In this document: piece by piece, positions 6,133 through 55,390 of the stretch | How positions within the stretch are numbered: the stretch's first letter is position 1 | Layout: every line of letters begins with the position of its first letter | Source: Candidatus Spongiisociaceae bacterium | GTDB lineage: Bacteria; Actinomycetota; Acidimicrobiia; Spongiisociales; Spongiisociaceae | Length of the DNA stretch: 64,000 nt | Assembly (NCBI GenBank): GCA_965262915.1 | Contig: OZ253564.1 | Location: forward strand, 1,952,001 to 2,016,000 | Reading direction: 5' to 3' | The notes under the pieces: generated by a model | Databases searched by the model: none | Told to the model about the DNA's origin: nothing | What the model saw: the letters and a program-made list of their open reading frames with translations, nothing else | Program-made: the position numbers and the translations under genes

Positions 6133-6567
6133 ATGTTCAGAACTGGCTTTGAAGACATACAGGTCGGAGACCTCCAGATGTCGTTGGGGCGGACGATTGA
6201 TTCGGCCGACCTTTTGGCCTACTCGATGCTCTCCGGCGATTGGGCTGCGCACCACATCGACGCCGAATACACCGCACGCACCCGGTTCCGGGGGCGCATC
6301 GCCCATGGAACTATCCCGCTCGCCGCCGTCTTCGGTCTTCTCCGCCTGCCACCCGACTCGACCTGGAAGCTCATCTATGGGTTGCGGAGCGTACGTTGGA
6401 TTGCGCCTGTTTGCATCGACGACACGATTCGCGGGAGGCTCGAGGTCAAAGGCAAGCACGATAGCAAGGGACCAACCGGAACGCTGGAACTGGTCCTTAC
6501 GGTCTTGAATCAACGGGATGTGGAAGTGATGGTGGCACCGCTCAAATCAGAGGTCGCTCGTGGCTGA
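6133..6567 (+). CDS. MaoC-family (hotdog) dehydratase
   Basis: FEDIQVGD, SGDWAAHHID, RIAHG and APVCIDDTI motifs. Confidence 0.85.
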   Translation: MFRTGFEDIQVGDLQMSLGRTIDSADLLAYSMLSGDWAAHHIDAEYTARTRFRGRIAHGTIPLAAVFGLLRLPPDSTWKLIYGLRSVRWIAPVCIDDTIRGRLEVKGKHDSKGPTGTLELVLTVLNQRDVEVMVAPLKSEVARG

Positions 6568-6606
6568 CCAAGCCCTGGCGCGCAGAGCAGGCCTGGGGTT
6601 TGCATC

Positions 6607-7089
6607 GTGGTGAGCAGATTCTTCGATGAGTCGAAGGTCGGAGATGTCAACTACTCGCGAGAACGGGTTATCTCCGAGGGCGACGTACAGAGGTTTTGTG
6701 GATTCAGCGGCGACTGGTTCGGCTCTTGGAGCTTCGCCCACATGGATCGGGACACGGGACTCGATCAAGAGTTCGAGCGAGACCAACTGCATGGAACGGC
6801 CATCATCGGTTTGAGCTACGGGCTGCAGTATCTCGAGAACCCCAACGTCATCGTCGCCGCCTACGGGTACGACGACATCGAGCACTTACGTCCGTTGTGG
6901 ATCGGTGACTCCATTCGCTACGAGTTCGAAGTCATCGCAAAAGAAGACCGCGGTGATGGCACCGGCACGTTGAGCACCGAGACGCGTATCTTCAATCAGC
7001 ACGACGAACTCGTCCTCCGATTTACGACACGCTCGCGAACCCGGACAAGGGAGAATTGGGAAGCGATCGAGCGTCGCGGCCTCGAGTGA
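6607..7089 (+). CDS. MaoC-family dehydratase
   Basis: FFDESKVGD, FSGDW...HMD, LHG, RPLWIGDSI and NQHDELV motifs. Confidence 0.8.
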   Translation: MVSRFFDESKVGDVNYSRERVISEGDVQRFCGFSGDWFGSWSFAHMDRDTGLDQEFERDQLHGTAIIGLSYGLQYLENPNVIVAAYGYDDIEHLRPLWIGDSIRYEFEVIAKEDRGDGTGTLSTETRIFNQHDELVLRFTTRSRTRTRENWEAIERRGLE

Positions 7090-7094
7090 GCAGG

Positions 7095-7767
7095 TTATTG
7101 GGAAGCCGGGGCGTCGTCCTCAGCCACAGTCCTGGTGAGCCCCTGGCGTGACGGACCAGTCTCGGGTCGCGCTCCTTGGAACCGCCAGGGGTCATCGATC
7201 GGCCCCGTGGTGGGAGGTGGCCGAACTCCATCGCGGACACGACCAGATCTCCTTGCCCTGCTTCGCGGTAACGGCACACTGCGGCGGGTTTGTCGGCGCG
7301 AGACGCTTTGGGCCACCACACCCGGTCATACCAAGTCTCGACTTCGGGCCATGCTTCCGGAGCCACGTGAAGGCTCTCGATGCGCACGGCCACCGGCGGA
7401 ACCGCCGTAGCCGGAGACGGAGTGCTGGACCGTGTCACCAGACCGACGAAGACCGTGAAGTAGTCGGCGATCACGCTCGGGGCAATGCGCTGCGTTCATG
7501 GCGACGGATTTCGCCGCTGCTGTTCGAAACCTGCAGACCGATATGTCCGGACGTCTTCTAACGCGTACCAGGCCAGATGCTTCGGCCCACCCTCCACAGC
7601 CTCGAAGCGCGCCGCCCACAACACGCCTGGTATCGCCGCCAGATCCGGCAGATGCTCCTGGTTGTGAATTCGGCCTCATGGACCTGAGGCATGTCTGCCC
7701 ATACCAACAGAACCCCGCCCTTCGGCTCCCGCTCGTGCGATGCTCCGCCACTCACCTTGTCGTCCAT
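7095..7767 (-). pseudogene. Dimeric alpha/beta barrel (EthD/DUF4286-like) pseudogene
   Basis: VLLVWADMP..HEAEF, frameshift to QEHLPDLAAIPGVLWAARFEAVEGGPKHLAWY, in-frame TGA at 7496-7498, second repeat EVETWY. Confidence 0.55.
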
Positions 7768-7810
7768 GCCATCGCGCCGTCCGCTCTTTAGCCGGCTACC
7801 GATCTCTCGA

Positions 7811-8899
7811 TCAGCTCTCCGGCCCCGGTCGTATGACAGCCCTGATCGGACGGCCTGACTGTTTGGGGCCCATCATCTCGACGGCCTCGGAAACGCCCCC
7901 AAGGGGGAAGGTTCTTGACACCATCTCATGGAACGGGATCTCCTTGTGCTGCAGCAGACGCAGTGCAGTCCGGTACGAACCCGCGCCCTTTTCGAACACG
8001 CCGCGCAGTTCGATGTCGTTCCATACCAGTCGATCGAGGTTCACCGTCGATGACCTTCCGCTCAGGCCTGCCCAAATTAGGCGACCCTGGGGGGGTAATA
8101 AGCCGAGGTCGGCTTCGACCGCAGTTGCGTCGCCGGACGCATCGATCACCAGTTCCGGTCCGGGGTCGCCGACGAGGCGGCGGACTTTCGTCGGCTCCCC
8201 CTCGCCGGCGAGAAGCACCGCATCAGCCCCGAGTCGTTGTGCCAGCTTGTGGCGAGGTTCATCAGCATCACGCCCGATCAACACTACGGCGTCGGCTCCG
8301 GCGTGGCGGGCAACCGCCACACATGCCATCCCGTGGGCACCGTCACCGCGGACTACCACGGAAACGCCGGGACCTGCGCGTCCGACTTCAATCGTCCATG
8401 AGACGGCATTTGCTACTACCGACGCCAGGACCGCCGACTCAGGAGACACACTGTCGGGAATCCGATGGACAATCGAACCGGGCGCGAGGTACATCTCGTC
8501 GGCCATTGCACCCCAAAGGTGCGGCGGGACATCACACGATGTCGTCGTTCCGTAGCCCTTTCGGGCGGGGCAGTACTTGTAGATGCCCCTGCGGCACCAC
8601 GCGCAGCGGCCGCACGGAACCGTTGATTCGACGGCAACTCGATCTCCTGTCGTCACGTCCCACCGCTCTGCCGCGGCCGGTCCGATCCGCGCGATTCGCC
8701 CCACAATCTCATGTCCGAGGACCAGCGGAAGAGGAGCATCGATTTCGCCGTTGAAGAGGTGATAGTCGGTGCCGCAGACACCCGCTGACTCAACGGCAAG
8801 CACGGCGTCGTCGTCTCGTGGCCTTATCGCCTCGAACTGCCTTATCTCGACAGAGCCCGGCCTGGTAACCACCGCTGCTCGGACCACACAACCTCCCAT
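7811..8899 (-). CDS. Zinc-dependent medium-chain alcohol dehydrogenase
   Basis: GVCGTD, GHE and structural Zn site CGRCAWC-x7-C. Confidence 0.9.
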   Translation of the reverse strand: MGGCVVRAAVVTRPGSVEIRQFEAIRPRDDDAVLAVESAGVCGTDYHLFNGEIDAPLPLVLGHEIVGRIARIGPAAAERWDVTTGDRVAVESTVPCGRCAWCRRGIYKYCPARKGYGTTTSCDVPPHLWGAMADEMYLAPGSIVHRIPDSVSPESAVLASVVANAVSWTIEVGRAGPGVSVVVRGDGAHGMACVAVARHAGADAVVLIGRDADEPRHKLAQRLGADAVLLAGEGEPTKVRRLVGDPGPELVIDASGDATAVEADLGLLPPQGRLIWAGLSGRSSTVNLDRLVWNDIELRGVFEKGAGSYRTALRLLQHKEIPFHEMVSRTFPLGGVSEAVEMMGPKQSGRPIRAVIRPGPES

Positions 8900-9053
8900 G
8901 CGACTCCCAGCCGGTCAAGCATCAACACGGCCCGGTCCGGGGACCGATTCTCACCGGCGGCTCGCACCTTACGCTCAGAGACAGAACATACCCGGCGCCG
9001 TCATACAAGGCTGAGCGCAGGTACCGTGCCATCATCGACGTTAGGAGGTCGGA

Positions 9054-9398
9054 GTGCTCCAGACCACATCGGGGGAAGAGATTTCCGACGTAGTGGCCCA
9101 ATATTTCGCCGCGGTCATGGGGCGTGATCCTGATGGCCTGAGGAAGGTGTTCGCCGAAGATGCCGTTCTGCAGGATCCGATGGGCATCCGACGCGGTCCC
9201 ACCCAGATCGTGAGTGGGTTTGTGGATCGCTTCTTCGGATCGGAGGATTTTGTCCCTGAGCCGGGGCCACTGCTCATCGAGGGTGACCGCGTGGCGGTCG
9301 AGATCAGCTTGCGTCTCGGCGGCGAGGTCGTTCGCCTCGCCGACTTCTTCACCATCGCCGATGGCAAGATCACCCGGCTCGACATTTACCGGGGCTGA
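9054..9398 (+). CDS. SnoaL/NTF2-like protein
   Basis: 114 aa; FAEDAVLQDP...DFFTIADGKITRL pattern. Confidence 0.8.
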   Translation: MLQTTSGEEISDVVAQYFAAVMGRDPDGLRKVFAEDAVLQDPMGIRRGPTQIVSGFVDRFFGSEDFVPEPGPLLIEGDRVAVEISLRLGGEVVRLADFFTIADGKITRLDIYRG

Positions 9399-11026
9399 TC
9401 GACCGGACCCTGCGACGATCTCTTCGGGCGGCTTGCATCGCCTACTCGCCCGAGACTATCCCACGTGGCTCCGGTCGCTCCCGAGTTCCGCAGCTCCTGT
9501 TTCTGGACCCGGCCGAGTACCGAGCGAGGCAGGCTCTCAACCAACTCGACATACCTGGGGACCATGTGCTCGGGTAGATAGTTCCGCAGGAACTCGATGA
9601 AGTCACTGGTTTCGAGCGTCGAGCCCGGTTCGAGCTCCAAGACGATCTTCAGTTCCTCGTCGCCGAAGGCGTCCGGCACTCCAACGAGGACGGCTTCCAC
9701 GACGCCGCTGTACCTGGCGGCGGTCTGCTCGATGTCGTACACGGGAATCCGGGTGCCGCGTCTTCTGATTGCATCGGTCTCGCGGCGCACGAAGTACATG
9801 AACCCGGCCTCGTCCCGATAACCCACGTCTCCTGTGTGGTACCAGAGGTTGCGGAACGCTTCCAGGGTCTCGTCCGGCTGCTTGTAGTAGCCTTCCATGA
9901 TCGTAAATGGCAGGCGTGGCCTGGCGACGAATTCACCTTCCGCTCCGGGCGGAAGTTCCCGGCCTATAGCATCGACGACCCTCATCTCAGCTCCGCCCGG
10001 CATCGGGCGACCGCAAGACCCGAGGGGTGTTCCGTCGAATGGGCTCGTCGTGAGGGCGAGCGTCTCCGTCACAGCGTACCCGTCGAGGAGCTTCACTCCG
10101 AAGCGTTGCTCGAAGTCGCGATGGATGTCTTTGGGCATCGGGTTGCCGACGATGTAGTGCAGTGGGTGGTCCAGGTCGTCATCGCGCACGGGTTGGGACC
10201 AGAGGATAGGCACCATCCCACCGACCAGCATCGTCATGGTCGCGCTCGAGTCGCGAACGTTATCCCAGAACTGGCTTGCGCTGAACTTGTCGATGATCGC
10301 CAGCTGGGCGCCGACCAGCAGCGGGGTCAACAAGGCATGGAACTGGATGCCGTGGAAGAGCGGGAGGCAACAGAGGAACGTACCGTCGGTGTCGAGGATC
10401 GGTCTCTCATACGACTCGCTCTGTCTGGTGATGTTGGAGACGGCAAAATTGTGCGTGATCATGACGCCCTTCGGCGGCCCGGTCGTTCCGCCCGTGTAGA
10501 TGACGCCGACGAGGTCGTGGGGCCTAACTTCGGGAAAGGCACCACCGTCATCGGTCGCGTAGAGCGCATCGAGGGACAGAAGCGTCGCGGCCGGAAAGGC
10601 AGGCACGGTGGATATGTCTCCCCGTCCCACGAGAGTTGTCAACGACGGAGCGAGTTCCAGCTCCGATCGAAGCCCACGGAGCCGGTCGGCTTCTGCTATG
10701 AGAACGGTGGCGTCGCAGTGGCCGAGGACGTATTCGAGAGGCTGGCCCCGGAACTGCGGATTGATCGGTACGTGGACCGCACCAAGCTTGGCTAGGGCGT
10801 AGAAGAGCACAACGAAGTCGTCACAGTTCGGAAGCATCACTGCCACTTTGGCTGCTCTGTCGATGCCGATGCGGGCCAGGCCCGATGCCAGATGGGCGAC
10901 GCGGTCGGCCAATTCTCCGTAGGTGACTGTCCCGGATCCGTGGCTGAGGTAGACCCGATCGGCGTAAGCGGCTGTGAACCGGTCGAAGGTTCCGCCAACC
11001 GTTGTCATCTCAGGATGTTCGCTCAC
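9386..11026 (-). CDS. Acyl-CoA synthetase (CaiC-like AMP-binding enzyme)
   Basis: YTGGTTGPPKG, GYAVTE and AFRNLWYHTGD motifs. Confidence 0.9.
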   Translation of the reverse strand: MSEHPEMTTVGGTFDRFTAAYADRVYLSHGSGTVTYGELADRVAHLASGLARIGIDRAAKVAVMLPNCDDFVVLFYALAKLGAVHVPINPQFRGQPLEYVLGHCDATVLIAEADRLRGLRSELELAPSLTTLVGRGDISTVPAFPAATLLSLDALYATDDGGAFPEVRPHDLVGVIYTGGTTGPPKGVMITHNFAVSNITRQSESYERPILDTDGTFLCCLPLFHGIQFHALLTPLLVGAQLAIIDKFSASQFWDNVRDSSATMTMLVGGMVPILWSQPVRDDDLDHPLHYIVGNPMPKDIHRDFEQRFGVKLLDGYAVTETLALTTSPFDGTPLGSCGRPMPGGAEMRVVDAIGRELPPGAEGEFVARPRLPFTIMEGYYKQPDETLEAFRNLWYHTGDVGYRDEAGFMYFVRRETDAIRRRGTRIPVYDIEQTAARYSGVVEAVLVGVPDAFGDEELKIVLELEPGSTLETSDFIEFLRNYLPEHMVPRYVELVESLPRSVLGRVQKQELRNSGATGATWDSLGRVGDASRPKRSSQGPVDQPR

Positions 11027-11111
11027 AAACCAGCCTTCACAACGCTCACATCCGGGGTAACGTTGCGGGAATGTCTATGCACAAGGACCGACCGTGGAGA
11101 GGATGGCGATC

Positions 11112-12926
11112 ATGCCTAGATTGAGTCTGAAGCGTAGCATTCCGGCAGTTGCTACGGTCCTGGTGCTCCTTGCCGCTGCGTGCGGTGACACCGCCGACAC
11201 GACTACTACCACCGCAGCGGCGACGACTCAGCCTGCGGCACCTGCTACGACCCAGGCCGAGGCAGCGGCGACGACCCAGGCCGAGGCAGCGGCGACGACC
11301 CAGGCCGAGGCAGCGGCGACGACCCAGGCTGCGGCAGCGGCGACGACCCAGGCTGCGGCAGCGGCGACGACCCAGGCTGCGGCAGCGGCGACGACCCAGC
11401 CCCCACAACCCGCCGTCAGCGGAACCGTGACGGTCGCACTGGCCAATCTCGGCACTGAATCCCTCGATCCCGGACTCGGGCAGAGCCGGGACAAGCTCTA
11501 TTGGGGCCCGATGTACGACTTCTTCATCGGTGCGGATCCCGATGGCAACCTGTCTCCGGATCTCGGGGCGTTGGAGCGATGGGACGCCAATGCCGACGCG
11601 ACGGAGTGGACACTCACCATCCGCACGGGAATGCGGTGGCACGATGGCACACCGGTCACGGCGGACGACGGCGTGTTCTCGATCGAGCGGTACCTGGCCG
11701 AGGATGCCGTCTGTAGCAGATGTCCGGCGTTGCAGAACCTGATCAACCGGGCCGAGAAGGTCGACCAGCAGACCTTCAGGGTGATCCTTGACTCCCCGTT
11801 CCCGTCCTTCGATGGAGACCTCAGTCCGTTGTCGGGCACCATCCCGATCCTTCCCAAGCACTACTTCGAGGCAGTGGGAGCGGCAGAATTCGGCAACAAC
11901 CCGATGGGGAGCGGGCCCTTCAAGTTCGTCGAACGCCAGATCGGGGAGTCGATCGAATTCGAGGCCAATCTCGACTATTGGAACCCGGACCGCGTTCCCA
12001 CGGTGGAGAGGCTCCGAATCATCGCGGTGCCTGAGGCCTTCAATCGCCTCACCCTCCTCGGCACCGGTGAGTTGGACCTCGCCCTTATGAGCCCCGTGCT
12101 CATAGACGACATCCTGGAAAGCGGGTTTCGCGTGATGGGACCCCAGAAGGTCCATACAGTGATGGCTGCTCTGGGACAGAGTTGGCGCGAGGACTACGAC
12201 ACAAGGCTGCTCGACATGCGTCGAGCCATGGCGCTGGCGGTAGATCAGGTGGCCCTCGTGAATGCCGTCTACGGGGACTCTGGGGTCCCGGCAGCCTCGT
12301 TCATAGGTTCCCCCGTCCACCCCGGCTACGACCCAACTCTCGAGGTCTACCCCTACGACCCCGGAGAGGCGACCCGAATCCTCCAAGATGCGGGCCTCGC
12401 CGGGTCCACTGTCACGATCTACACATGGACGAGCTTCTCGGCCCTGCCTGAAGCACCTCTGGTGCTCGAAGCGATCGCGGCATTCCTCGATCAAGTCGGG
12501 CTCGAGACCGAGATCGTCCCGACCGACTTTGCCTCCATCGCCCCGCAGCTCTACATGTCCGAGGGGTCGGAGGCCGGCATCGAGGGCGACAACGCAATCC
12601 ACATCTGGTTCGTCCAATCGGCTGGCTCTCTGGAGAGTGCGATCCGATTCGGGCTCGTTTGTCAGGCAGACGGAGGCAACTTTGGCGCGTATTGGGACTG
12701 CCCAACCGTGAACCGACTGTATGGCGATCTCTTGTCGTCGTCGGACGTTGCGAAGCGACACGAGATCGCTTTGGAGCTCAATCGCGCGGCGCATGACACG
12801 TTCGCCGCCCTTCCTGTCGCCCTAGTCGATCAGGTGTGGGCAGTCGGACCCCGGGTGACGGGCTGGTCCCCTACGGACTTTTCGTCCGAAGACCCACGTT
12901 ACGAAACGATCAGCATCTCGGGCTGA
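11112..12926 (+). CDS. ABC substrate-binding lipoprotein, family 5 (OppA/DppA-like)
   Basis: Lipobox LAAAC, Ala/Thr linker, WHDGTPVTADD and PMGSGPFKF motifs. Confidence 0.9.
   Translation: MPRLSLKRSIPAVATVLVLLAAACGDTADTTTTTAAATTQPAAPATTQAEAAATTQAEAAATTQAEAAATTQAAAAATTQAAAAATTQAAAAATTQPPQPAVSGTVTVALANLGTESLDPGLGQSRDKLYWGPMYDFFIGADPDGNLSPDLGALERWDANADATEWTLTIRTGMRWHDGTPVTADDGVFSIERYLAEDAVCSRCPALQNLINRAEKVDQQTFRVILDSPFPSFDGDLSPLSGTIPILPKHYFEAVGAAEFGNNPMGSGPFKFVERQIGESIEFEANLDYWNPDRVPTVERLRIIAVPEAFNRLTLLGTGELDLALMSPVLIDDILESGFRVMGPQKVHTVMAALGQSWREDYDTRLLDMRRAMALAVDQVALVNAVYGDSGVPAASFIGSPVHPGYDPTLEVYPYDPGEATRILQDAGLAGSTVTIYTWTSFSALPEAPLVLEAIAAFLDQVGLETEIVPTDFASIAPQLYMSEGSEAGIEGDNAIHIWFVQSAGSLESAIRFGLVCQADGGNFGAYWDCPTVNRLYGDLLSSSDVAKRHEIALELNRAAHDTFAALPVALVDQVWAVGPRVTGWSPTDFSSEDPRYETISISG
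11223..11399 (+). repeat. 24-bp coding tandem repeat (TTQAEAAA / TTQAAAAA)
   Basis: 3x ACGACCCAGGCCGAGGCAGCGGCG then 3x ACGACCCAGGCTGCGGCAGCGGCG from 11247, plus degenerate end units. Confidence 0.95.
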
Positions 12927-13003
12927 AGGCACTGCTCGGCGCCACGGGAAGGGTTCTGAGTGCTGCGTTCCCTGCGTGGACGCCGAAAGGAAGGTAAGGG
13001 AGG

Positions 13004-13333
13004 TTGAACTTGATCGTCGACTATCGGGCATACACATTCAAGCCGGGTTCCGTGCCCACGTTTCTTCGGATGTTCGAAGAGGAAGGGCTTGAGATCCAGC
13101 AGCGGATCTGTGGGCGCTTCCTGGGGATCTTCCGGACTGAGGTCGGCAACCTGAATGAAATCATCCAGATGTGGGGGTACGACAGCCTTGCCGAACGCGA
13201 GCGGCGGCGGAAGCTGTTGTTCGAGGATGAGCATTTTCTCGATTACGCCGAGAGAGCCCGGGAAATCATCGTGTCTCAGGAAGTTCGCGTCCTGGAGATG
13301 CCGGCTTTCGCGGCTCACGAGTTGATCGGGTAG
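13004..13333 (+). CDS. NIPSNAP family protein
   Basis: IVDYRAYTFKPG...TEVGNLNEIIQMWGYDSLAERERRR pattern. Confidence 0.88.
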   Translation: MNLIVDYRAYTFKPGSVPTFLRMFEEEGLEIQQRICGRFLGIFRTEVGNLNEIIQMWGYDSLAERERRRKLLFEDEHFLDYAERAREIIVSQEVRVLEMPAFAAHELIG

Positions 13334-13667
13334 AAACCGCTAAGCCGTCGCTCCGGCATCGAGTCCGAGTTATGCACCGGTATCGAAGAGGTCCCTCCTA
13401 CGCTTGACGGAGACCCGGTTGTCCACGATGCAACTCGTACTACTCGTACGATCCGAGCACGAGGCCCACGCCGTTGCTCCTTCAGCGACCACCTGAACCC
13501 GGAGACCATGGCGGGCCTGCCATCGGGACTCTCGTGAGCCCTGCCGATCAAATGGATCGCTCGACGGTGCATGGTCGGTTCCGAGGCGTCCGGCCCGAGT
13601 ACAGTGGGTGTCGCGGCTTCCGAGCAGCGACCGGAATGCGGCGGTGAAGCGAGCCCGGAGGCGCTTG

Positions 13668-14438
13668 GTGGGAACGCGTGAAGTAGCGGTGATCACGGGT
13701 TCGGGCAGGCCTTGGAGTCTCGGGCGCGCTTGCGCTGTCCTACTCGCGTCTAAAGGAGTCGACATCGCCGTCGTCGACCTTCGGGCGGATTGGGGGAGAG
13801 AGGCCGTCACGGCCGTTGAACAGGCCGGAGCGAAGGGCTTCTTCGCTCATACCGACATCTCCCGCCGCGACGACGTAGAGGCGATGGTGGCGGGCGTCCT
13901 CGACGAGTTCGGTCGCATCGACACGCTCATTAACAGCGCGGCCGTCGTCGAGAACAGGCCCCTTGACGAGATCACTGATGAGCATTTCGATCGTGTCATC
14001 GGTATCAACCTGCACGGAACGATCCTCACCTGTCAGGCAGTAGCACCGACCATGCGACGGCTCGGCCGAGGCCGGATCATCAACATAGCCTCCGGGGCCG
14101 CCGTCCGGCCGCTGCGAACCACCGGTGTGTACAGCGCTTCCAAAGCGGCGGTAGTCGGCTTCAGCCGGGTCCTCGCACTAGAGTTGGCCGAAGACGACAT
14201 CGTGGTCAATGTCGTTGCGCCGGGGACGATGGGCAATGCAATGGGGAGTGAGCGTGGCCCGGAGGTCCGGGGCGATGTCGGATCGGCGAAGCTCGCGGCG
14301 GCGCTCCCCGCGCAGCCCTTCGGAACGCTCCCGACCATCGATCAAGTGACGGACCTCATCGCCTACCTCGCCACCTCGGACTCGCCGATCCTTGCCGGAC
14401 AGACATTGCACGCCAATGCTGGGGCGTGGATGGTGTGA
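13668..14438 (+). CDS. Short-chain dehydrogenase/reductase
   Basis: VITGSG..LG, INSAA, IINIAS and YSASK catalytic motif; start chosen by GGAGG RBS. Confidence 0.9.
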   Translation: MGTREVAVITGSGRPWSLGRACAVLLASKGVDIAVVDLRADWGREAVTAVEQAGAKGFFAHTDISRRDDVEAMVAGVLDEFGRIDTLINSAAVVENRPLDEITDEHFDRVIGINLHGTILTCQAVAPTMRRLGRGRIINIASGAAVRPLRTTGVYSASKAAVVGFSRVLALELAEDDIVVNVVAPGTMGNAMGSERGPEVRGDVGSAKLAAALPAQPFGTLPTIDQVTDLIAYLATSDSPILAGQTLHANAGAWMV

Positions 14439-43879: not shown

Positions 43880-43989
43880 ACCGCTTCTGGACCTCGTCGC
43901 TCTCGAGAAGAGCTCTCGCATGGTGGGATTCGCTGGTCGTGCCACCACCGACGACGCGTGCTCCGCGGCTGATCTCGGGAGCCGTTGTG

Positions 43990-44200
43990 AGCTTCCTTTC
44001 CAGCATCAGTATGTGGCGCCGCGCAGCTTCACATCCGGCACCTGCTCCACGTGAACTCGACGAGAACGGGGCCAAGTCCGCCGGCCGGCTCGTCGAGCGG
44101 CAGGATATCGGGTTCGGTAATGAGGGCACGAACCAATCGCCACTATCTGCTGTTCACCGCCGGAGAGCAATCTGGCGTGAACGGTTTCTTTGCTCCTGCA
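43990..44200 (-). pseudogene. Branched-chain amino acid ABC ATPase (LivF-like) remnant
   Basis: LSGGEQQIVAIG then shifted frame ALITEPDILPLDEPAGGLGP; no Walker A. Confidence 0.6.
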
Positions 44201-44275
44201 GTTGCACCAGACAAGGTCTTTGGCCATCTGCGCAAGTTCGACGACCACTAGCCCGAGAGCAGCGAACGCATTCCA

Positions 44276-47245: not shown

Positions 47246-48624
47246 GACGTAGCCAGCCTGAAGCCGCCCAGGGCCAGCAGGGAGAACCCGCTCTCGAAGG
47301 CAGTCCTTATCGTGGCCATGTCCTCGTCCGTGATGGCCGTCGAGATCGTCATCAACAGCCGGTTCGGGGCCACAAAGACCCCATCGCCGAGCATCGAGAG
47401 GAAGAGTAGTTCGAGGGGGAGCTTCGGCAGTGCCGCCGAATCCCGAAACGACCGGGGCGGTGTGGTTCCGGCGTGCACCTGCACGACACTCCCATACCCG
47501 GTTGCGACGAGTGGGAGATCGCGTTCGCGACAGGTGCGATTGATCCAGTCGCGCAGGTCGTCGCCAAGCCCATTGATCCGCTCCGCCGCCTCGGGTGTGA
47601 GGGCCTGGAGCGTGTGCAAGCCGGCGGCCATCGTGAGCGGGTTGGCGTTGAACGTCCCGGCGTGCATCAAGGCGTCCGGGTTACGCGGATCGGCCACAGC
47701 CATGACGTCGGCACGGCCGCCGAAGGCGCCGACCGGTGTACCCCCGCCGATGATCTTGCCCATTGCCGTTAGGTCCGGATAGACGCCGATCTCACCCTGA
47801 AGGCCGCCGTAGCCGAGGCGCAACGTCATCACCTCGTCGAAGATCAGGAGGCAACCTGCACGCTCGCAGGCGTCGCGGACGGCTTCGAGATAACCCGGTT
47901 CAGCGCGAATCGCACCGGCCGACCCCTGCATCGGTTCGATCATCAAGGCAGCCGATCGGGGGCCGACCTCGTCGATTATCCGCACGGCCGTCTCCGTGTC
48001 ATTGAACGGAATGATGTGGGTTTGGTGGGCAGTTCCGGGATGTATTCCGGTCTCGACGACGCTCTCATTGGCGTCCTCCCCCATGTGCTTCACCGAGACC
48101 TGGGCGGCTTCGAACCCGCCGTGGTAACCGCCCTCGACCTTGATGATGTCGTTGCGGCCGGTGAATGCCCTCGCCGCGCGAATCGCGTAGAGGCACGCCT
48201 CAGTTCCCGAGTTGGCGAACCTGACCTGATCGACGGCCTCCATTCGACCCACCATCTCCTCGGCCAGCAGCACCTCGTTTTCCGTCGGTGTGCCGAAAGC
48301 CACGCCTTTGTCCACTTGCTCGGCGATGCGCCGGCGCGACTCGTCGGTGAGATGCCCGTGTACCAGGCTCGTGTAGTTGTTGACGAGATCGAGATGCGTC
48401 AGACCGTCGACGTCGTAGAGCCATTGCGCCTCGGCCGACTCCACGTAGAAGGGAAAGGGCTCGAAGTAGAGCTGGGACCGCGAGTTTCCGCCGGGCAGCG
48501 CTTTGAGCCCGCGCTGGTAGAGCTCCTCCGAGCGGGGGTGGGCGGATGCATATTCGCCCTGCAGTTCGGGCAGGAGACCTTCGAGTGCCCCGAGACTGAA
48601 CTCTTGGGTTGGCTGCAGGGTCAC
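47242..48624 (-). CDS. Class III aminotransferase (glutamate-semialdehyde aminomutase-like)
   Basis: NSGTEA, GGYHG, IFDEVMT, MGKIIGGG and HAGTFN. Confidence 0.88.
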   Translation of the reverse strand: MTLQPTQEFSLGALEGLLPELQGEYASAHPRSEELYQRGLKALPGGNSRSQLYFEPFPFYVESAEAQWLYDVDGLTHLDLVNNYTSLVHGHLTDESRRRIAEQVDKGVAFGTPTENEVLLAEEMVGRMEAVDQVRFANSGTEACLYAIRAARAFTGRNDIIKVEGGYHGGFEAAQVSVKHMGEDANESVVETGIHPGTAHQTHIIPFNDTETAVRIIDEVGPRSAALMIEPMQGSAGAIRAEPGYLEAVRDACERAGCLLIFDEVMTLRLGYGGLQGEIGVYPDLTAMGKIIGGGTPVGAFGGRADVMAVADPRNPDALMHAGTFNANPLTMAAGLHTLQALTPEAAERINGLGDDLRDWINRTCRERDLPLVATGYGSVVQVHAGTTPPRSFRDSAALPKLPLELLFLSMLGDGVFVAPNRLLMTISTAITDEDMATIRTAFESGFSLLALGGFRLATS

Positions 48625-49490
48625 GCTACCACCGACTCGGTCAGGGTCTCATACAGGTCAGGCCGCCGGTACTTGTAGAAGTTGAGGGCCTTGCGGCTGT
48701 CTGCAACGTACTCCGGGTCGATGTCTGCGTAGATGATTCCGTCCTGATCGTCCGCGCGCTCGATCCGAATTCCCTCTGGATCGAAGAAGACCGACCGTCC
48801 TGGAAAGGAACCTTCGAGGCCGGGGCCCGTCAGCGGCCCGACCTTGTTGATGCCGGCCACATAGAGCGTGTTGGACCATGCCATCGCCTGCAGTCCCGGC
48901 TCCCACATCGTCTCGATGACGAACTTCCGGTATGAAGCGGTCGGCACGAAGATGATGTTGGCACCCTTGATTCCCAGCGTTCTCGGGCCTTCGGGGAAGT
49001 GGCGGTCGTAGCAAATGACGATGCCGACGTTGAGACCGAGCGACGTCTCCCACACGTTGAATCCGGTATCGCCGGGAGAGAAATACCACGCCTCGTCGGC
49101 GCCGCGCTGGCCCTTCCGGGCCCTTGAGGTAGGCACGTGCGACTTGCGGTAGATCATCTGCAACCCATCGACGGGGTCGATCATCGTTGCGGTGTTGTAG
49201 CGGATATCCCCCACTGCTTCGTACAGAGGGAAGACGACATGCATATCGTTGGCGGCGGCCGCGGCCTCGATTCTCTCCGTGCTCGGGCCCGGGATGGTCT
49301 CTGCGAGGTCGAGCCGGGCGGCGTTGCGGTGGTCAAAGCAGAAGTACGTCGTAGTCGCAAGCTCGTGGAAGGCAATCATCTTCGCCCCTGAAGCAGAGGC
49401 CTCGGCGATTTGCTTCTCGATCATCGTGAGGTTCTGATCGGCATCATCGGTCGATGCGAATTGGCCCAAGGCCACTTTGATCGCCGGCAT
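48621..49490 (-). CDS. Carbon-nitrogen hydrolase (beta-ureidopropionase/carbamoylase-like)
   Basis: Glu-Lys-Cys triad FHEL, YRKSH, ICYDRHFPE; C-terminal RRPDLY. Confidence 0.88.
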   Translation of the reverse strand: MPAIKVALGQFASTDDADQNLTMIEKQIAEASASGAKMIAFHELATTTYFCFDHRNAARLDLAETIPGPSTERIEAAAAANDMHVVFPLYEAVGDIRYNTATMIDPVDGLQMIYRKSHVPTSRARKGQRGADEAWYFSPGDTGFNVWETSLGLNVGIVICYDRHFPEGPRTLGIKGANIIFVPTASYRKFVIETMWEPGLQAMAWSNTLYVAGINKVGPLTGPGLEGSFPGRSVFFDPEGIRIERADDQDGIIYADIDPEYVADSRKALNFYKYRRPDLYETLTESVVA

Positions 49491-49789: not shown

Positions 49790-51157
49790 TCAGTCGCGCG
49801 GAGCCGAGCCGATATACGTGCCCGTCGGATTGTCGCCCGTCGCATCGCCTACACGGACCGCAACAACACCGCGTCGCACGACGTCACGAGGGAAGCCGCT
49901 GGAAGACAGCGACTCGTACAGCGAGTAGTCGGCCTTGCCGTGCAGGTTCTCCGGGACGATGGGCCTTGAGGGCGCTTCCTTTGGTATCACGACGAGGTCC
50001 GCATCAGAGCCGACGCGAATGGCACCCTTGCTCGGGTAGATATTGTGAACCTTCGCCGCGTTGGTGGCGGTGAGGCGGGCGACGTCCTCGATCGAGATAC
50101 GTCCCGCTTCGAACCCCAGGCTGTAGATGAGAGGGAGCATGGGCTCCACTCCCCCGATGCCACCGTATGTGGCGTCGAGTATGTCGTCGGTTGCCAGCTT
50201 GACTTTCGTCGACTTCGGCGAGTGGTCGCTGCTGATGTGACTCAGCAATCCTTCCTCGGTCACCGCCCAGATCGCGGCAATGTCCGCTTCCTCCTTGAGC
50301 GGCGGGCCCACCTTGCCGAGCGGTCCCCTTGCAAGTACCTCCGCATTGGTGAGAGCCAGGTAGTGAGGCTGTGTCTCGCTCTCGATCCGGGCTCCGTAGG
50401 GACCCGCTTTGAGTTGGCGCAGCATAGCGGCGCCCTCCTTTGAGGTGAGATGGACGAAAAGGAGCCGTGTGCCGGTGAGCCCGGCGAAGGTTGCGGCGCG
50501 GAACATCCCCTCGGCCTCGAACACACCCGGCTGAGCCCGGAGGAGGCTTCCGTTGTCGACACCGCGCCGCCGCTCGATGCTCTCGAGGTAGTCGATACCG
50601 CCACCGTTCTCCGCGTGGATCATCGTGAGGCCGCCGACATCCGCCACTGTCGCCATCATGCGCATCAGATGCTCGTCGTCGAACATCAGTCCCTTCTTGT
50701 TGTAGGCGACCATCGCCTTGTAGGACATCACACGGATGTCGGCACCACCCCTGACGGCCCCCTCGATGTCGTCACCGGGCAGAAGCAGGCCATTCATGAA
50801 GAAGTCACTATGTGCCTCGGCATTGCCGTAGTCGATGAGACTGCGCATCACCGCGACGATGTCCTTCTGCGGCGTGCGCTGTACGAACACACCCAGAGTG
50901 GTCACGCCGCCCATGAGCCCGGAAGCGCTAGCGTCGACGAGGTCGTCGAGGATCGGCTCCATCGTCGAGTAGCCCTCCAGAGATACGTGAATGTGCGGAT
51001 CGATGGCCCCCGGCAGAACCCAGCAGTCCGTGGCGTCGAGAAGAACGTCGCCGTCGAAACCGTCTCCGATTCTGACGATGACGCCGTCGGAGATCGCGAT
51101 ATCGCCTTCGACGACGCCGTTCTCGGTAACGATGCTGCCGCCGCGCACGAGTGTCAT
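49790..51157 (-). CDS. Second dihydropyrimidinase/hydantoinase-like amidohydrolase
   Basis: PGAIDPHIH, SYK, IHAENG, FVHLT, SSDH and KGAIRVGSDAD. Confidence 0.88.
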   Translation of the reverse strand: MTLVRGGSIVTENGVVEGDIAISDGVIVRIGDGFDGDVLLDATDCWVLPGAIDPHIHVSLEGYSTMEPILDDLVDASASGLMGGVTTLGVFVQRTPQKDIVAVMRSLIDYGNAEAHSDFFMNGLLLPGDDIEGAVRGGADIRVMSYKAMVAYNKKGLMFDDEHLMRMMATVADVGGLTMIHAENGGGIDYLESIERRRGVDNGSLLRAQPGVFEAEGMFRAATFAGLTGTRLLFVHLTSKEGAAMLRQLKAGPYGARIESETQPHYLALTNAEVLARGPLGKVGPPLKEEADIAAIWAVTEEGLLSHISSDHSPKSTKVKLATDDILDATYGGIGGVEPMLPLIYSLGFEAGRISIEDVARLTATNAAKVHNIYPSKGAIRVGSDADLVVIPKEAPSRPIVPENLHGKADYSLYESLSSSGFPRDVVRRGVVAVRVGDATGDNPTGTYIGSAPRD

Positions 51158-51429
51158 GAGTCCCTCCGGATGAGTCGACCTGTGGATTCGGATGCCAAGT
51201 AGGTGTGCCCGTCGGTGTCCGTCAGTCGGCACCCGTCAGCGCTCGTGGCTTGGTAGGGATGTGGCCAGAAGTACAACCGGGTGCGGCTGTTGCAGCCGGG
51301 TAGAACGTCGACCACCCGGCCCTGGAGTTTCCCGGACCTCGGGCGCGCTCCTGCGTATTCGAGGTGCACCGACTCGATTGCTGCACGGGGCACGCGCTCG
51401 GCGAAGAGCGATTCGGAAGCGACGACCAT
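51154..51429 (-). pseudogene. Truncated class III aminotransferase (N-terminus only)
   Basis: EYAGARPRS...LPGCNSRTRLYFWPHP...DTDGHTYL aligns by eye with the N-terminus of 47242-48624. Confidence 0.75.
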
Positions 51430-51433: not shown

Positions 51434-52477
51434 TCAAACCTCTTTCAGAGCCGGGATGACCTCGTCGTCGAGAAGCTTCAGCGATGCCAGGGTCATCTCG
51501 GCCGGCATCCCGCTCCAATGGCTACGGAAAAGAAAGTGGTCGACACCGAGTTCGGTTCGCCAGGGCCGCAGCTGAGCGATGCAGTCGTCCGGTGTGCCCA
51601 GGATGAATCGGTCCTTCTCGAGCTCCTCGACAGGGATCTTGAACGACTCGTTCCCGGGGAGAGCCTTGTCCTGGCCCCAATCGGCGTACACCCGGTACTT
51701 TTTCGACAGGTACGGGTAGGCCATACGGGTCGCCTCCTCACGCGTCGGAGCGCAGAACACCTCACGGATCAGCGGCAGTTCGGAGACGGGCGGCAATCCG
51801 GCGCTAACCCGCTCGACCCGGAACATCTCCAGCTGGTTTGCGATCGTGTCCACCGTGGCGTGCGGGTTGATCATCCACGAATCGGACAGGCGGGCGGCGC
51901 GGCGTACCGCAGCGTGGGCGTTTGCTGCGATCCATATGGGAGGGCGCGGTCGCTGGATCGGCGGCATTGTGAGCTGCGCATCGTCGAGCCGGCACCAGGG
52001 CAGGTTCGCGGTCACCCGCTCGCCCATGAGCAGTCGGGTTGCGATATCCAGATTGCGGGTGAACCGCTCCACCCGGTTGCCGCGGTCGACTGCGAATGCG
52101 TTGTTCTCCACGTCGCGGTAACCCAAACCGACGCCGAACACGAAGCGGCCTCCGGTGGTGACGTCGAGGCTGGCGACCAGCTCGGCCGCGTCGACCGGGT
52201 TGTAAAGGGCGATCAGCAGGACGCCGAGACCCACTGCCATGTCGTCGGACTCGGCCGCCATGCGTGCCAGGAACGGGATCGGCTGCGGCATTGCCATACC
52301 CTCCGGCAGATAGTGCTGGCCGGCGAACACCGAATCCCAGCCGGCGTCCCTGGCGAAGCGGAACGTGTCAAGCTGGCCCTCTTGGCCTGCGATGACATCG
52401 GATTCGGGCGGATGCTGGTTGGTGAGGAACAGCCCAAACCTCACCGGCTTATCGTGGCCGCGTCCAGGGGTGATCAT
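51434..52477 (-). CDS. LLM-class oxidoreductase
   Basis: GWDSVFAGQH, AELVASLD, GVGLGYR and QRPRPPIWIAA. Confidence 0.88.
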   Translation of the reverse strand: MITPGRGHDKPVRFGLFLTNQHPPESDVIAGQEGQLDTFRFARDAGWDSVFAGQHYLPEGMAMPQPIPFLARMAAESDDMAVGLGVLLIALYNPVDAAELVASLDVTTGGRFVFGVGLGYRDVENNAFAVDRGNRVERFTRNLDIATRLLMGERVTANLPWCRLDDAQLTMPPIQRPRPPIWIAANAHAAVRRAARLSDSWMINPHATVDTIANQLEMFRVERVSAGLPPVSELPLIREVFCAPTREEATRMAYPYLSKKYRVYADWGQDKALPGNESFKIPVEELEKDRFILGTPDDCIAQLRPWRTELGVDHFLFRSHWSGMPAEMTLASLKLLDDEVIPALKEV

Positions 52478-52710: not shown

Positions 52711-53040
52711 GCCTCGGCGTTTTCCACCACGGCCCGAGTCGTTCATGACCGACGTGACGGCAACGGACACGAATCTAACCGGATGCTAGTGCGCATGGAT
52801 GTCGGCGGATCATCGAATGAATGGCCCTGGTTGGCAGCCAGCCGCTTGTACCGATGATGCACCCGTATGCCCGCTTGGTCGCCTTGTCGATGAGGTTCTT
52901 GCCCAAGCGTGCGCACATTCCGCGCGGCGCATACGCGTCCAGAAGATTGACGGACGGTATCGCGATTCTGAACCCTTGGCTGCGCTCATCCATGGTGGGT
53001 AATCGGTCTCGCTGTTGTATCCACACTCGCTTCCGGCCGG

Positions 53041-53988
53041 TCACGTCGCCGCGGCCGAGGCGCGTGGCGCGGCCACAGTCTCGTACAGCATTGTGAACTG
53101 CTCGACTGCCTCCTCCGGTCGGCCGCCGTACAAGAAAATGAGGTGACGGACACCGGCCGCGGCGTATGCCTCGACACGCTCCCCAACCTCTTCCGGGTTC
53201 CCGGCGAGACACAACGTCTCGATGAGGCCAGCGGAAAAGTCGCTGTGGTAGCGCTTGCTCAAATGAATGCGCAGATCCTCGCGCGCTTCGTCACCGTCGG
53301 GCCCGACCCTGGTTGGGATCATCATCGCCGGAGTAATAGCGTGCGGATCTCGTCCGGCATCGATCGCGTGACCGCGGACTTTGGCGAGGTGCTTCGCGTA
53401 GCGGTCGGGCGAGACCATGTATCCCATCCAGCCGTCGGTCAGTTTTCCCGCCCTTGCCAGAACTGCATCAGCTCGTCCCCCAACCCAGATTGGAGGTCCA
53501 CCCGGAGTCACCGGCAGAGGGTTCAGCCCTACATCGTTGAAGTCGGAGAATCTGCCGTGGAAGCTCGCCTCCGGCACATCCCAGAGCGCCCGGAGCACCC
53601 GGATGCCCTCGTCGGTCCGTGCGCCCCGCTCGTGGCGGGCCACGCCCACCATTTCGAAATCTTTCTGGCTGTCACCGCCGACGCCCAGCCCGCAGATGAG
53701 CCTGCCCCCGCACAGATAGTCGAGTGTTGCCATTTGCTTGGCCACAAGGGCCGCGGGCCGCAACGGCAGCAACAGGACTCCGGTGCCGATCGTGATCGTT
53801 GTCGTGTAGCCGGCGAAGGCCGATACTGCGACGGTACCTTCCAGGACCGGGTTGCCGAACGAGAGGTGGTCACCGCACCAGAGCGAGTCGTAGCCAAGCT
53901 CTTCGGCTGCTGCCGCGATGTCGCGGAACACCCCCGGGTCGGGCAGGCCTTCGGGCATCTGCCCGCTTGCCATGACTCCGAATTTCAC
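53041..53988 (-). CDS. LLM-class oxidoreductase (TIGR03619-like)
   Basis: GYDSLWCGDH, AKQMATLD, RGARTDE and GPPIWVGG. Confidence 0.88.
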   Translation of the reverse strand: MKFGVMASGQMPEGLPDPGVFRDIAAAAEELGYDSLWCGDHLSFGNPVLEGTVAVSAFAGYTTTITIGTGVLLLPLRPAALVAKQMATLDYLCGGRLICGLGVGGDSQKDFEMVGVARHERGARTDEGIRVLRALWDVPEASFHGRFSDFNDVGLNPLPVTPGGPPIWVGGRADAVLARAGKLTDGWMGYMVSPDRYAKHLAKVRGHAIDAGRDPHAITPAMMIPTRVGPDGDEAREDLRIHLSKRYHSDFSAGLIETLCLAGNPEEVGERVEAYAAAGVRHLIFLYGGRPEEAVEQFTMLYETVAAPRASAAAT

Positions 53989-54007
53989 GCAAGACTCGAC
54001 TTGGCGG

Positions 54008-55390
54008 TCAACCGGTATCGGTAGCGAGCATCGAGATGAGTTCGGGGAAGCTCGAAGCGCTCCCGAGGCCGGCGACGGCTGTGGCAATCGCGTCCTGGCG
54101 TTGCACCGAGTACACAGGCCCGGTGATGTCGTCGAACTTTGTCCTGAGTTCCCCGGGTGAGAGCGGATTCGTGGGGTCGCCCTTCGGGTCGTCGATCTCT
54201 GCCCTCAGCGTGCGGCCGTCGGTCGTGATCACCTCGGCCCAACTTCTCCATTGATGAGGGTAGGTGAGATCGAGGTCCGTGTCTATGACACGATCTGTGG
54301 CATCCATCAAGCGGTGCATCTCGGGGTCATCGAAGCGCGACTCGTCGTATTGCGCCAGCGATGCCCGCCCTTCGGTGAGCGCCACCGCGACCCCATACGG
54401 CATCGAGAACTGGGCATCGACGACGGTAGACGGACGGCGTTTTGCCTCGATCGGCTGCCAGACGATGTCCTCAGCGACGCTCAGCAGCCCGATCTTGATC
54501 CCGGCAACATCATCGCTGCTGAGGTCGTAGTTGGAACGGAGTTCCAAGAGAGCATCGATCGGGCCCTGCTTGTAGCGGCAACAGGTGTGTGCCTTGATAC
54601 TGGTGTTCTGCACCTCAAGCGGCCGATCGCCCCAGCCGGCGAGGATCTCCTTGGGGTTCGGATCGTCTGAGTATCCGGCCAGGAATCCACGCTCTCCACC
54701 GATTCCGTCGTCGGTTCCCTTGAACCCGTGTCGAGCCATCAACGCCGCTTCCACACCGTTGCGGGCAGCCTGAGCGGGATGGAGACGCTTGGTCCACGCG
54801 CCGTCGAGAAGGAACTGCATGCTGCCGGCTGCCATCGTTGCCGCTATGCCGAGAGCAGAAACCGTCTCATCGACACCCAGTCCGAGTATCGAGGCGGCCG
54901 TAGCGGCCGCTCCGAAATGGCCGGTAGTACCGGTGGGGTGGAAGTGGCGCCGGTAGTGAGCGAGTGGTTTGGCGGCGCGGCCGATCCGGCACATCACCTC
55001 GTAGCCGACGATGACGCCGAGCAGAAAGCGCTGTGCATCCGCATCAGAGAGCTGCGCTGCCGCGATAGCCGCCGGGAACACGGCAACGCCGGGATGACTC
55101 GAGGCAGCGTTGTGCACGTCGTCATATTCGATGGAGTGAGCGGCGACCGCGTTGGCCATGGCCGCGTGGAGAGGATTCGCGGTGAGGCTCGTTCCGATGA
55201 TCGGGGCGCCGCCCGGGGTCGACGACACCGCGAAGGATTGCATTGCCCGTCCCGAGTCGGTAGTTGCACCGTTGGCCGCGACGCCGAGATGGTCGAGAAG
55301 GAGTTCTCGGGTCGCCTCCAGATCGCGGTCTGTGAGTTCCGAATAGGTCAACTCCCAGACCCGCTCGACAAGGTCCCTCGTCAGCGACAT
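54008..55390 (-). CDS. MmgE/PrpD family protein
   Basis: HSIEYDDVH, HPG, GYEV, FHPTG, AQFSMPY and PKGDP. Confidence 0.92.
   Translation of the reverse strand: MSLTRDLVERVWELTYSELTDRDLEATRELLLDHLGVAANGATTDSGRAMQSFAVSSTPGGAPIIGTSLTANPLHAAMANAVAAHSIEYDDVHNAASSHPGVAVFPAAIAAAQLSDADAQRFLLGVIVGYEVMCRIGRAAKPLAHYRRHFHPTGTTGHFGAAATAASILGLGVDETVSALGIAATMAAGSMQFLLDGAWTKRLHPAQAARNGVEAALMARHGFKGTDDGIGGERGFLAGYSDDPNPKEILAGWGDRPLEVQNTSIKAHTCCRYKQGPIDALLELRSNYDLSSDDVAGIKIGLLSVAEDIVWQPIEAKRRPSTVVDAQFSMPYGVAVALTEGRASLAQYDESRFDDPEMHRLMDATDRVIDTDLDLTYPHQWRSWAEVITTDGRTLRAEIDDPKGDPTNPLSPGELRTKFDDITGPVYSVQRQDAIATAVAGLGSASSFPELISMLATDTG

Follow-up and report, generated by a model that had tools for sequence, protein, structure and literature searches.

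What function is served by a ~49-kb block of ~40 genes, eight of which encode proteins of the luciferase-like monooxygenase (LLM) family, in the genome of Candidatus Spongiisociaceae bacterium? The block occupies positions 6097–55390 of a 64,000-nucleotide window (OZ253564.1, positions 1,952,001–2,016,000), which is the stretch of DNA that was analyzed and to which coordinates refer unless another location is given. A first-pass annotation made from the sequence alone had placed the block at 6133–55390 and had interpreted it as a candidate undescribed F420-dependent system for N-heterocycle degradation. The right end of that span holds, whereas the first gene starts at 6097. The gene classes that it named, comprising eight LLM proteins, five amide hydrolases, an aminotransferase, an ornithine cyclodeaminase (OCD)-like enzyme, a thiamine diphosphate (ThDP) enzyme, a molybdenum (Mo) hydroxylase, coenzyme A (CoA)-related genes, a PrpD-family protein and an importer, all were found with Pfam and NCBIfam profiles. 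Its list lacked SnoaL_2, NIPSNAP, short-chain dehydrogenase (SDR), zinc-dependent alcohol dehydrogenase (Zn-ADH), TyrA-like dehydrogenase, major facilitator superfamily (MFS), alpha/beta hydrolase and methyltransferase genes, and an acyl-CoA dehydrogenase (ACAD) C-terminal fragment.

The interpretation favored here, with moderate confidence, is that the block forms a catabolic island, accessory and prone to rearrangement, in which F420H2 would drive the reductive degradation of at least one N-heterocycle resembling pyrimidines, hydantoins or purines, or of ureido compounds. It draws on observed gene content and family membership, the contexts in which the clades of LLM1 to LLM5 occur, the F420 genes of the host, the lack of a PydA homolog and the mobility of the block, from which the individual enzymatic steps, the cofactor, the direction of reaction, the substrates and the unity of a single pathway are extrapolated. 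Pfam scans covered 74 open reading frames (ORFs) of ≥150 residues in the window and 60 short ORFs in the gaps, and the NCBIfam scan covered 42 window proteins. Gene calls rested on Pfam matches because, at 63% G+C, shadow ORFs and genes could not be told apart by the G+C content of third codon positions; values across the window were 62–66%. The unpublished genome G022 was not relied on for any of the claims.

The luciferase-like proteins and their genomic contexts

The LLM genes are clustered beyond chance in the block: eight of the 40 matches to PF00296 in the 5,055,038-base genome fall within these 49 kb, where ~0.4 would be expected. In a tree of 38 LLM sequences the eight proteins split into three clades, each with high SH-aLRT support. 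Clade A (support 100) lies inside the TIGR03842 family and unites the sisters LLM1 (21173–22165, forward strand) and LLM4 (33037–34020, forward strand) with a third copy of the host and with LLM proteins of Kribbella, Pseudonocardia, Trebonia, Actinopolymorpha and uncultured Actinomycetota. LLM1 (422 bits, cut-off 295) and LLM4 (301.6 bits, cut-off 295.45) both are diverged members of this F420-class family. Clade B (support 98) comprises LLM2, LLM3 and LLM5 (30951–31952, 32008–33000 and 35740–36732, all forward), a paralog at 4.09 Mb and the LLM proteins of three genomes of the same class and of other orders. The best NCBIfam match of LLM2 (183 bits) and LLM3 (142 bits) is Mer, the F420-dependent methylene-H4MPT reductase, in each case below the cut-off, and LLM5 was assigned from NCBIfam matches and the tree. 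Mer also is the closest solved structure for LLM1 (E 3.5e-37) and LLM2 (E 2e-41). Clade C (support 99) groups LLM6 (36707–37786, forward), LLM7 (51434–52477, reverse) and LLM8 (53041–54087, reverse) with other TIGR03619-like paralogs. The best NCBIfam family of all eight proteins is F420-class.

An indication of function comes from the neighbors of clade A. Canonical proteins of the host were used as queries within ≤7 kb of TIGR03842 LLM genes. Of 20 such loci from the same class, 17 have a dihydropyrimidinase ortholog and 17 a CN-hydrolase ortholog; methylmalonate-semialdehyde dehydrogenase (MMSDH) accompanies the LLM gene at 13 and a class-III aminotransferase at 11. At 42 of 49 loci in other Actinomycetota, both the amidohydrolase and the CN-hydrolase are neighbors. 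At single loci the neighbors include an NCS1 nucleobase permease, in Actinopolymorpha, or a xanthine/uracil permease together with an aldehyde dehydrogenase. The host itself possesses a canonical operon at 4.78–4.79 Mb in the order CN-hydrolase, aminotransferase, dihydropyrimidinase (573 bits, cut-off 393), MMSDH (742 bits, cut-off 448) and TIGR03842 LLM (4790783–4791778; 552 bits). Thus, the prediction that the genes would recur together elsewhere was borne out, both in these operons and in a congener, G001, that is described below.

These operons match the pyrimidine-degrading Pyd pathway except at its start. The Pyd pathway consists of PydA/PreTA, the dihydropyrimidinase PydB, the beta-ureidopropionase PydC, a beta-alanine aminotransferase and a (methyl)malonate-semialdehyde dehydrogenase. 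The host lacks a PydA/PreA homolog, as its only full-length gene of the DHO_dh family (PF01180) is pyrD at 1805989, and the same single gene is present in all eight genomes of the genus. Among the conserved genes the first step alone lacks a candidate and the LLM alone lacks a role, and we therefore infer from gene context that the TIGR03842 protein is an F420H2-dependent pyrimidine reductase. No account of an F420-dependent dihydropyrimidine or uracil reductase, of TIGR03842 or of CPS_4043 was found in literature searches, for which full-text coverage was incomplete.

Clade B has a different setting. Of the 150 other genomes of the class, 50 have an ortholog (52–63% identity) of the window Mo-hydroxylase (26575–28911, forward; PucD/XdhA-type large subunit, TIGR03196 813.7 bits, cut-off 783.65). 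Five of the 14 contexts that were fetched have an LLM2 ortholog (43–46%) and a second Mo enzyme nearby, the latter being a fused Fe-S/Mo enzyme in two annotated contexts, and a split ThDP enzyme also is close by in two of the five. At locus L074 the fused enzyme scores 782 bits on the model for selenium-dependent xanthine dehydrogenase (cut-off 830), and the amidohydrolase beside the LLM gene is an 8-oxoguanine deaminase (604 bits, cut-off 532). Clade B proteins sit inside purine Mo-hydroxylase clusters in three other genomes, and the clade accordingly is embedded in purine-ring clusters.

Two observations adjoin these results. The window Mo-hydroxylase is nearer to proteins of other orders of the class (57–63%) than to those of its own order (52–57%), which hints at acquisition of the gene from outside; it is 50–54% identical to the copy in the host that has an Fe-S partner. 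Elsewhere in the host (2705000–2724900) the genes of an amidohydrolase and a 4Fe-4S protein come after a fused Fe-S/Mo XdhD-like gene (860 residues); an LLM gene and a D-aminoacylase paralog lie ~10 kb away. This region may be a reductive purine locus of the host's own.

F420 dependence presupposes that the cofactor is made by the host. A profile search of the host genome with the cofE, cofD and cofH models returned cofE/fbiB at 251 bits (cut-off 181), an adjoining cofD/fbiA at 247 bits, which is just below the cut-off of 257, and cofH at 497 bits (cut-off 374) inside a 758-residue frame of fbiC type. F420 biosynthesis, on whose presence the first-pass annotation had depended, therefore is represented in the genome.

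A proposed reductive route and its known counterparts

The gene families of the block can be arranged as a reductive route. Uptake would be mediated by a Dpp/Opp-type ATP-binding cassette (ABC) system, together with an MFS transporter (22174–23517, reverse; PF07690). The ABC system consists of two ATPases (14775–16845, forward; PF00005 and PF08352), two permeases (19308–21114, forward; PF00528) and two SBP_bac_5 binding proteins, SBP1 (11094–12926, forward) and SBP2 (29061–30830, forward; PF00496). SBP2, which is 95% identical in G001, matched only generic cluster-C binding proteins among solved structures (agrocinopine, dipeptide and nickel binders) and therefore gives no clue to the ligand. 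The Mer-like LLM1 to LLM5 would draw on F420H2 for the reduction of a C=C or C=N bond in the ring, in place of reductases of PydA or YgfK type. The reduced ring would be opened by two dihydropyrimidinase/hydantoinase-like cyclic amidohydrolases, Hyd1 (17812–19311, forward) and Hyd2 (49790–51232, reverse). Although their TIGR02033 scores of 359 and 243 bits lie below the cut-off of 393, the metal-binding and catalytic residues are retained in both proteins (HxH, K, H, H and D in Hyd1).

Carbamoyl or acyl groups then would be removed by three further hydrolases. The CN_hydrolase gene adjoins that of the class-III aminotransferase (47242–49490, reverse); its best NCBIfam match, AguB, reached 179 bits against a cut-off of 410, so that the assignment is at family level. 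The amidase-signature amidase (33971–35629, forward; PF01425 E 2e-106) resembles GatA, FAAH and the biuret and allophanate hydrolases in the Protein Data Bank (PDB). The third hydrolase is a D-aminoacylase homolog (39888–41555, forward), with PDB matches to D-aminoacylase (E 3e-67) and to the N-acyl-D-Glu deacylase 3GIQ (2e-65). The aminotransferase and the OCD-like enzyme (23454–24566, forward; ornithine cyclodeaminase/mu-crystallin family, PF02423 E 8e-29) would eliminate the amino group, with oxidation following, and the resulting 2-oxo acid would be decarboxylated by the ThDP enzyme. The latter is encoded by three ORFs (alpha, beta, beta; 24454–26556, forward) and is sulfopyruvate/phosphonopyruvate-decarboxylase-like, with TIGR03845 and TIGR03846 scores of ~100 bits that lie below the cut-offs. 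Its tandem beta ORFs (25256–26556) are 54% identical to one another and are kept in G001 at 90% and 82%. Finally, the carbon skeleton would be handled as CoA esters by three CoA ligases (two AMP-binding and one PaaK-like), three MaoC hydratases and an SCPx-type thiolase with DUF35. The anticipated sequence of ring reduction, ring opening, decarbamoylation and deamination fits the conserved operons. The block is a rearranging mosaic, and its modules are treated as an accessory set that may not amount to one pathway.

A more specific proposal is made tentatively. The enzyme so far lacking at the start of pyrimidine degradation in Actinomycetota would be the TIGR03842 protein, a uracil/thymine reductase that depends on F420H2 and has no relationship to PydA. 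The island would harbor neofunctionalized versions, LLM1 and LLM4, and the purine counterparts LLM2, LLM3 and LLM5, which with the diverged hydantoinases and the dedicated importer would dearomatize and open non-standard rings such as those of modified bases or marine alkaloid-like ureides. The whole would be an F420-driven system for reductive N-heterocycle degradation that serves several substrates. Uracil or thymine probably is not the substrate of the island copies, since these have diverged and keep company with a TyrA-like dehydrogenase, an amidase and an importer of Dpp type. The host has three TIGR03842 copies; of 151 genomes, 44 others are positive for the family, each with a single copy. 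Because of these three copies, and because Hyd1 and Hyd2 have diverged with catalytic residues kept, the block is viewed as a mobile, evolving collection of diverged paralogs of nucleobase-catabolic modules, features that fit new substrates better than redundancy.

The island shares with the Pyd pathway the dihydropyrimidinase/hydantoinase-family amidohydrolases, a nitrilase-superfamily carbamoylase-like enzyme and the class-III aminotransferase, and the family of LLM1 and LLM4 is embedded in operons with Pyd-type enzymes across Actinomycetota. It differs in having a Mer-like F420-class LLM where PydA would stand and in the divergence of its copies: Hyd1 and Hyd2 both fall short of the dihydropyrimidinase cut-off, and LLM1 and LLM4 score below the ~550 bits of the canonical TIGR03842 copy in the host.

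The reductive uric acid pathway of anaerobes comprises XdhD, YgfK/UacX, SsnA, HyuA, YgeW/UacY, YgeY as well as YgeX, with SsnA as its marker, according to the available text of Li et al. (2025; PMC12507026). The same logic of a Mo-hydroxylase, a dearomatizing reductase, cyclic amidohydrolases, a D-aminoacylase-type hydrolase and decarbamoylation recurs in the island, as far as that text describes it, and the D-aminoacylase homolog is UacY-like by homology only. In contrast, the best SsnA match (TIGR03314) in the whole host genome was 227.6 bits against a cut-off of 455.5, with none in the window, and the amidohydrolase beside the LLM gene in related clusters is the 8-oxoguanine deaminase rather than SsnA. 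Moreover, the Mo enzyme of the island is of PucD/XdhA type, with hammerhead and MoCoBD domains but without the fused Fe-S domain of XdhD, and no YgeY or YgeX homolog was found among the scanned window ORFs (PF01546 had no match, and PF00291 only a sub-cut-off match on the Zn-ADH). Strict membership in the reductive urate pathway therefore was ruled out.

Mer itself belongs to the superfamily of LLM1 and LLM2 and transfers hydride to a C–N bond on a pterin ring, but the island proteins score below the Mer equivalog cut-offs and their gene context is entirely different. A 'reductase' branch of F420-dependent LLM enzymes has been described (Mascotti et al., 2018, PMC6279831; Grinter and Greening, 2021, PMC8498797; available text of both). 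The term 'undescribed' that was applied initially is right only in part. The island, with its Mer-like LLM lineages and diverged hydrolases, is new; the idea that an F420 luciferase-family protein might substitute for the urate ring reductase already is in print as a putative assignment (PMC12507026).

If correct, the interpretation would give F420 a role in nucleobase and N-heterocycle catabolism, a topic absent from the accessible text of the 2021 F420 review (PMC8498797), in which neither 'uracil' nor 'hydantoin' occurs. It would also fill the apparent pyrimidine reductase gap in Actinomycetota. The island then would constitute a natural set of diverged pairs of ring reductases and ring hydrolases, useful for finding new substrates and, in biocatalysis, for hydantoinase-type processes that incorporate a deazaflavin ene- or imine-reductase.

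Mosaic structure and alternative explanations

The block has moved within its genus. A 20-kb DNA query gave long matches (79–87%) in one of seven congeners, G001, and in none of 23 relatives outside the genus. In G001 the ~42 kb corresponding to window positions 13.6–55.4 kb are present on three contigs with 71–95% protein identity, including all eight LLM genes. In that genome smpB and pdxH are 5 kb apart, and the block therefore occupies another chromosomal site. Between ssrA and pdxH the genus has a variable hotspot whose length is 1.2 kb in G004, 4–5 kb in G002 and G001, and 17–19 kb in both G003 and G005, against 56 kb in the host. The block clearly illustrates the movement of a large catabolic unit within a genus. 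Near-identical DNA was found in 15 sequencing runs from at least seven studies. Metatranscriptomic contigs from three runs of two studies match parts of 19300–39299, the longest spanning 2781 bases over SBP2 and LLM2 with 53 differences; such libraries can contain DNA, so the matches are no proof of transcription.

A less likely explanation is that a recombination hotspot has piled up unrelated operons, namely an ABC/hydantoinase unit, a Mo-hydroxylase/ThDP unit, the LLM/amidase run and a CoA unit, the number of LLM genes reflecting a genome-wide expansion. The variable ssrA–pdxH distance and the insertion sequence (IS) remnants on both sides accord with this explanation, as do the changed module order and the unmatched left 7 kb in G001 (described below), paralogous sub-modules that stand apart elsewhere in the host and a genome with at least 40 LLM genes, 18 genes for Mo-hydroxylase Fe-S subunits and 35 matches to an amidohydrolase model. 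Nonetheless, ~42 kb with all eight LLM genes have stayed together in G001 at a different site, chance would put far fewer than eight of the 40 LLM genes into 1% of the genome, and the types of hydrolase present suit the steps that would follow ring reduction.

Several findings count against the reductive interpretation, the first of which bear on the unity of the block. In G001 the ABC/TyrA/Hyd1/LLM1 unit has the opposite orientation and lies directly against SBP2, so that the order of modules differs from that in the host. The left 7 kb (5800–13500) were not found there at E ≤ 1e-40, and the MaoC gene and ACAD fragment are missing, with no room for them between the alpha/beta hydrolase and D-aminoacylase orthologs. 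Because of the altered order, the unmatched left 7 kb and the MaoC/ACAD insertion, a mosaic fits better than one pathway. The island-type ABC-TyrA-Hyd1-LLM1 unit was detected only within this genus-level lineage, in G001, in L019 and in one of 80 metagenome loci; the metagenome locus, recovered with Hyd1 as query, has the same identities as G001 and therefore adds no new lineage. No regulator family was matched in the Pfam scans of window ORFs, and the Fer2_2 and FAD_binding_5 partners of the Mo-hydroxylase were not found in the window, where none of the 18 Fer2_2 (Fe-S small subunit) genes of the host lies.

Other such findings concern profile scores and the cofactor. Seven proteins (LLM2, LLM3, LLM5, LLM6, LLM7, Hyd1 and Hyd2) score below the cut-off of their best family. 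No Fno was found by profile search of the host genome, and the best match to the FGD equivalog is 182 bits (cut-off 420). The gene with that match, which lies ~30 kb past the right edge of the window, scores 231 bits on the TIGR03557 F420_G6P family (cut-off 210) and is a candidate source of F420H2. Co-occurrence of F420 genes with TIGR03842 was considered as evidence and set aside, since 148 of the 151 genomes in the class have cofE, which leaves it without discriminating power. Finally, judging by profile and structure matches LLM1 to LLM5 resemble Mer, whereas LLM6 to LLM8 appear ambiguous as to cofactor. On TIGR03619 (cut-off 166.9) LLM8 reaches 192.7 bits, LLM6 misses by 5 bits at 161.8 and LLM7 scores 111.8. 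Five of the eight proteins are Mer-like and three (LLM1, LLM4 and LLM8) pass F420-class cut-offs. The top PDB matches of LLM7 and LLM8 are FMN luciferases, with Mer close behind, so that either cofactor may apply to these two proteins.

The FMN luciferase matches speak for an improbable oxygenative alternative, according to which some or all of the LLM proteins are FMNH2-dependent monooxygenases (Rut-like, Baeyer-Villiger or C–N cleaving) that are supplied by a flavin reductase from another locus, and the substrates of the hydrolases are oxygenated products. LLM7 in addition matches the FMN-class model TIGR04027 with 84 bits. LLM ('FMNO') paralog expansions in SAR202 Chloroflexota were interpreted as Baeyer-Villiger monooxygenases in the available text of Landry et al. 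(2017; PMC5395668). As described there, that lineage likewise combines many LLM paralogs with CoA-linked enzymes in a marine-type heterotroph, but the present host is actinobacterial and its LLM genes, read here as reductases, are clustered with amide hydrolases. No sequence motif that separates F420- from FMN-dependent LLM proteins was found in the accessible text of Mascotti et al. (2018; PMC6279831). Against oxygenation, LLM1 to LLM5 are nearest to Mer and F420-class families, and the operons of the LLM1/LLM4 family lack only the reductive first enzyme. Furthermore, the Rut pathway is poorly matched: the best RutA score (TIGR03612) was 40.5 bits, for LLM6, against 498, and the Pfam scans of the window disclosed no RutB, RutF or isochorismatase. 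The remark that no flavin reductase is recognizable in the block was upheld, as neither scan matched such a family in the window.

That the cluster instead makes a small N-containing natural product by way of its ligases, methyltransferase, SnoaL-like protein and LLM tailoring is highly improbable: a methyltransferase, SnoaL_2 and three adenylating ligases are present, but no PKS, NRPS, cyclase or exporter core was matched in the window, the importer has two solute-binding proteins, there are five amide hydrolases and SnoaL_2 lies in the non-conserved left segment.

Borders and remaining genes

The block lies between two groups of other genes, with ftsE, ftsX, an M23 peptidase gene, smpB and the transfer-messenger RNA (tmRNA) gene at the left end of the window and pdxH, a xerC-like recombinase gene, rpsB and tsf at the right. 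The tmRNA gene ssrA (3562–3915, forward; ARAGORN, and Rfam RF00023 148.6 bits) is the left border of the variable interval and has a short predicted tag peptide, ARPNLALAA. It is followed by an IS110-family transposase remnant with the N-terminal domain only (4500–5315, reverse; PF01548 E 2.4e-17). On the right border, Pfam matches identified reverse-strand transposase remnants across 56124–58869, namely a frameshifted IS110-type sequence at 56124–57060 and an ISL3-type sequence at 57637–58869. The first conserved gene beyond the interval is pdxH (60168–60932, forward), recognized by Pfam and by synteny in congeners. The right IS110-family element (55815–57320), frameshifted here, occurs at least 25 times in the genome (78–97% identity).

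Two modes of insertion were rejected. A tmRNA-targeted island was discounted for want of a direct repeat of the ssrA 3′ end, of which the genome contains no second copy longer than 16 bases; the sole tyrosine recombinase found is the conserved xerC-like gene. A composite transposon also was dismissed, as no DNA similarity exists between the IS110-type elements on the two sides.

The left segment (6097–13333, mixed strands), which is not conserved with the rest of the block, contains genes recognized by Pfam for two MaoC proteins (6097–6567 and 6607–7089, both forward), the Zn-ADH (7811–8899, reverse), SnoaL_2 (9054–9398, forward), an acyl-CoA ligase (9386–11026, reverse), SBP1 and NIPSNAP (13004–13333, forward). 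The SDR gene follows (13608–14438, forward; PF00106 E 9e-50), with 80% DNA identity in G001. The TyrA-like NAD(P) enzyme (16880–17794, forward) of the prephenate/arogenate dehydrogenase family has PDH_N and PDH_C domains and a PDB match to prephenate dehydrogenase (E 1e-16). It was excluded as a hidden Fno, as F420_oxidored scored only 16 bits.

Further to the right are the alpha/beta hydrolase gene (37780–38775, reverse; Pfam) and the third MaoC hydratase gene with the ACAD C-terminal fragment (38944–39985, forward; Pfam), an insertion specific to the host genome. The second AMP-binding acyl-CoA ligase (41555–43069, forward; PF00501) abuts the D-aminoacylase homolog. The reverse-strand run at 43073–49490 encodes, by Pfam and NCBIfam, the methyltransferase, the PaaK-like ligase, the SCPx-type thiolase, DUF35 (46814–47245), the class-III aminotransferase and the CN_hydrolase. 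The last gene (54008–55390, reverse) specifies an MmgE/PrpD-family protein that is closest to IDS epimerase (PDB, E 1e-42) and IRG1 rather than to PrpD proper, scoring 49 bits on the PrpD model (cut-off 950).

The spacer between the amidase and LLM5 genes (35610–35725) contains a ~105-base hairpin-forming repeat (−50 kcal/mol) with 65 blastn matches in the host genome and copies in the congener G003, and it looks like a REP or MITE-type element. By profile search the host genome has four WhiB genes and no Omp85 match, which marks it as actinobacterial and led to the rejection of SAR202 or Gemmatimonadota as host. A distant region of the host (370000–388000) carries genes for a CoA-transferase III, an MmgE/PrpD protein, a triple RidA fusion, an SCPx thiolase, an ACAD, an LLM and a MaoC protein. 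Identities to the island are 48% for the thiolase and 65% for MaoC, which suggests a recurring PrpD-like/thiolase/MaoC/LLM unit.

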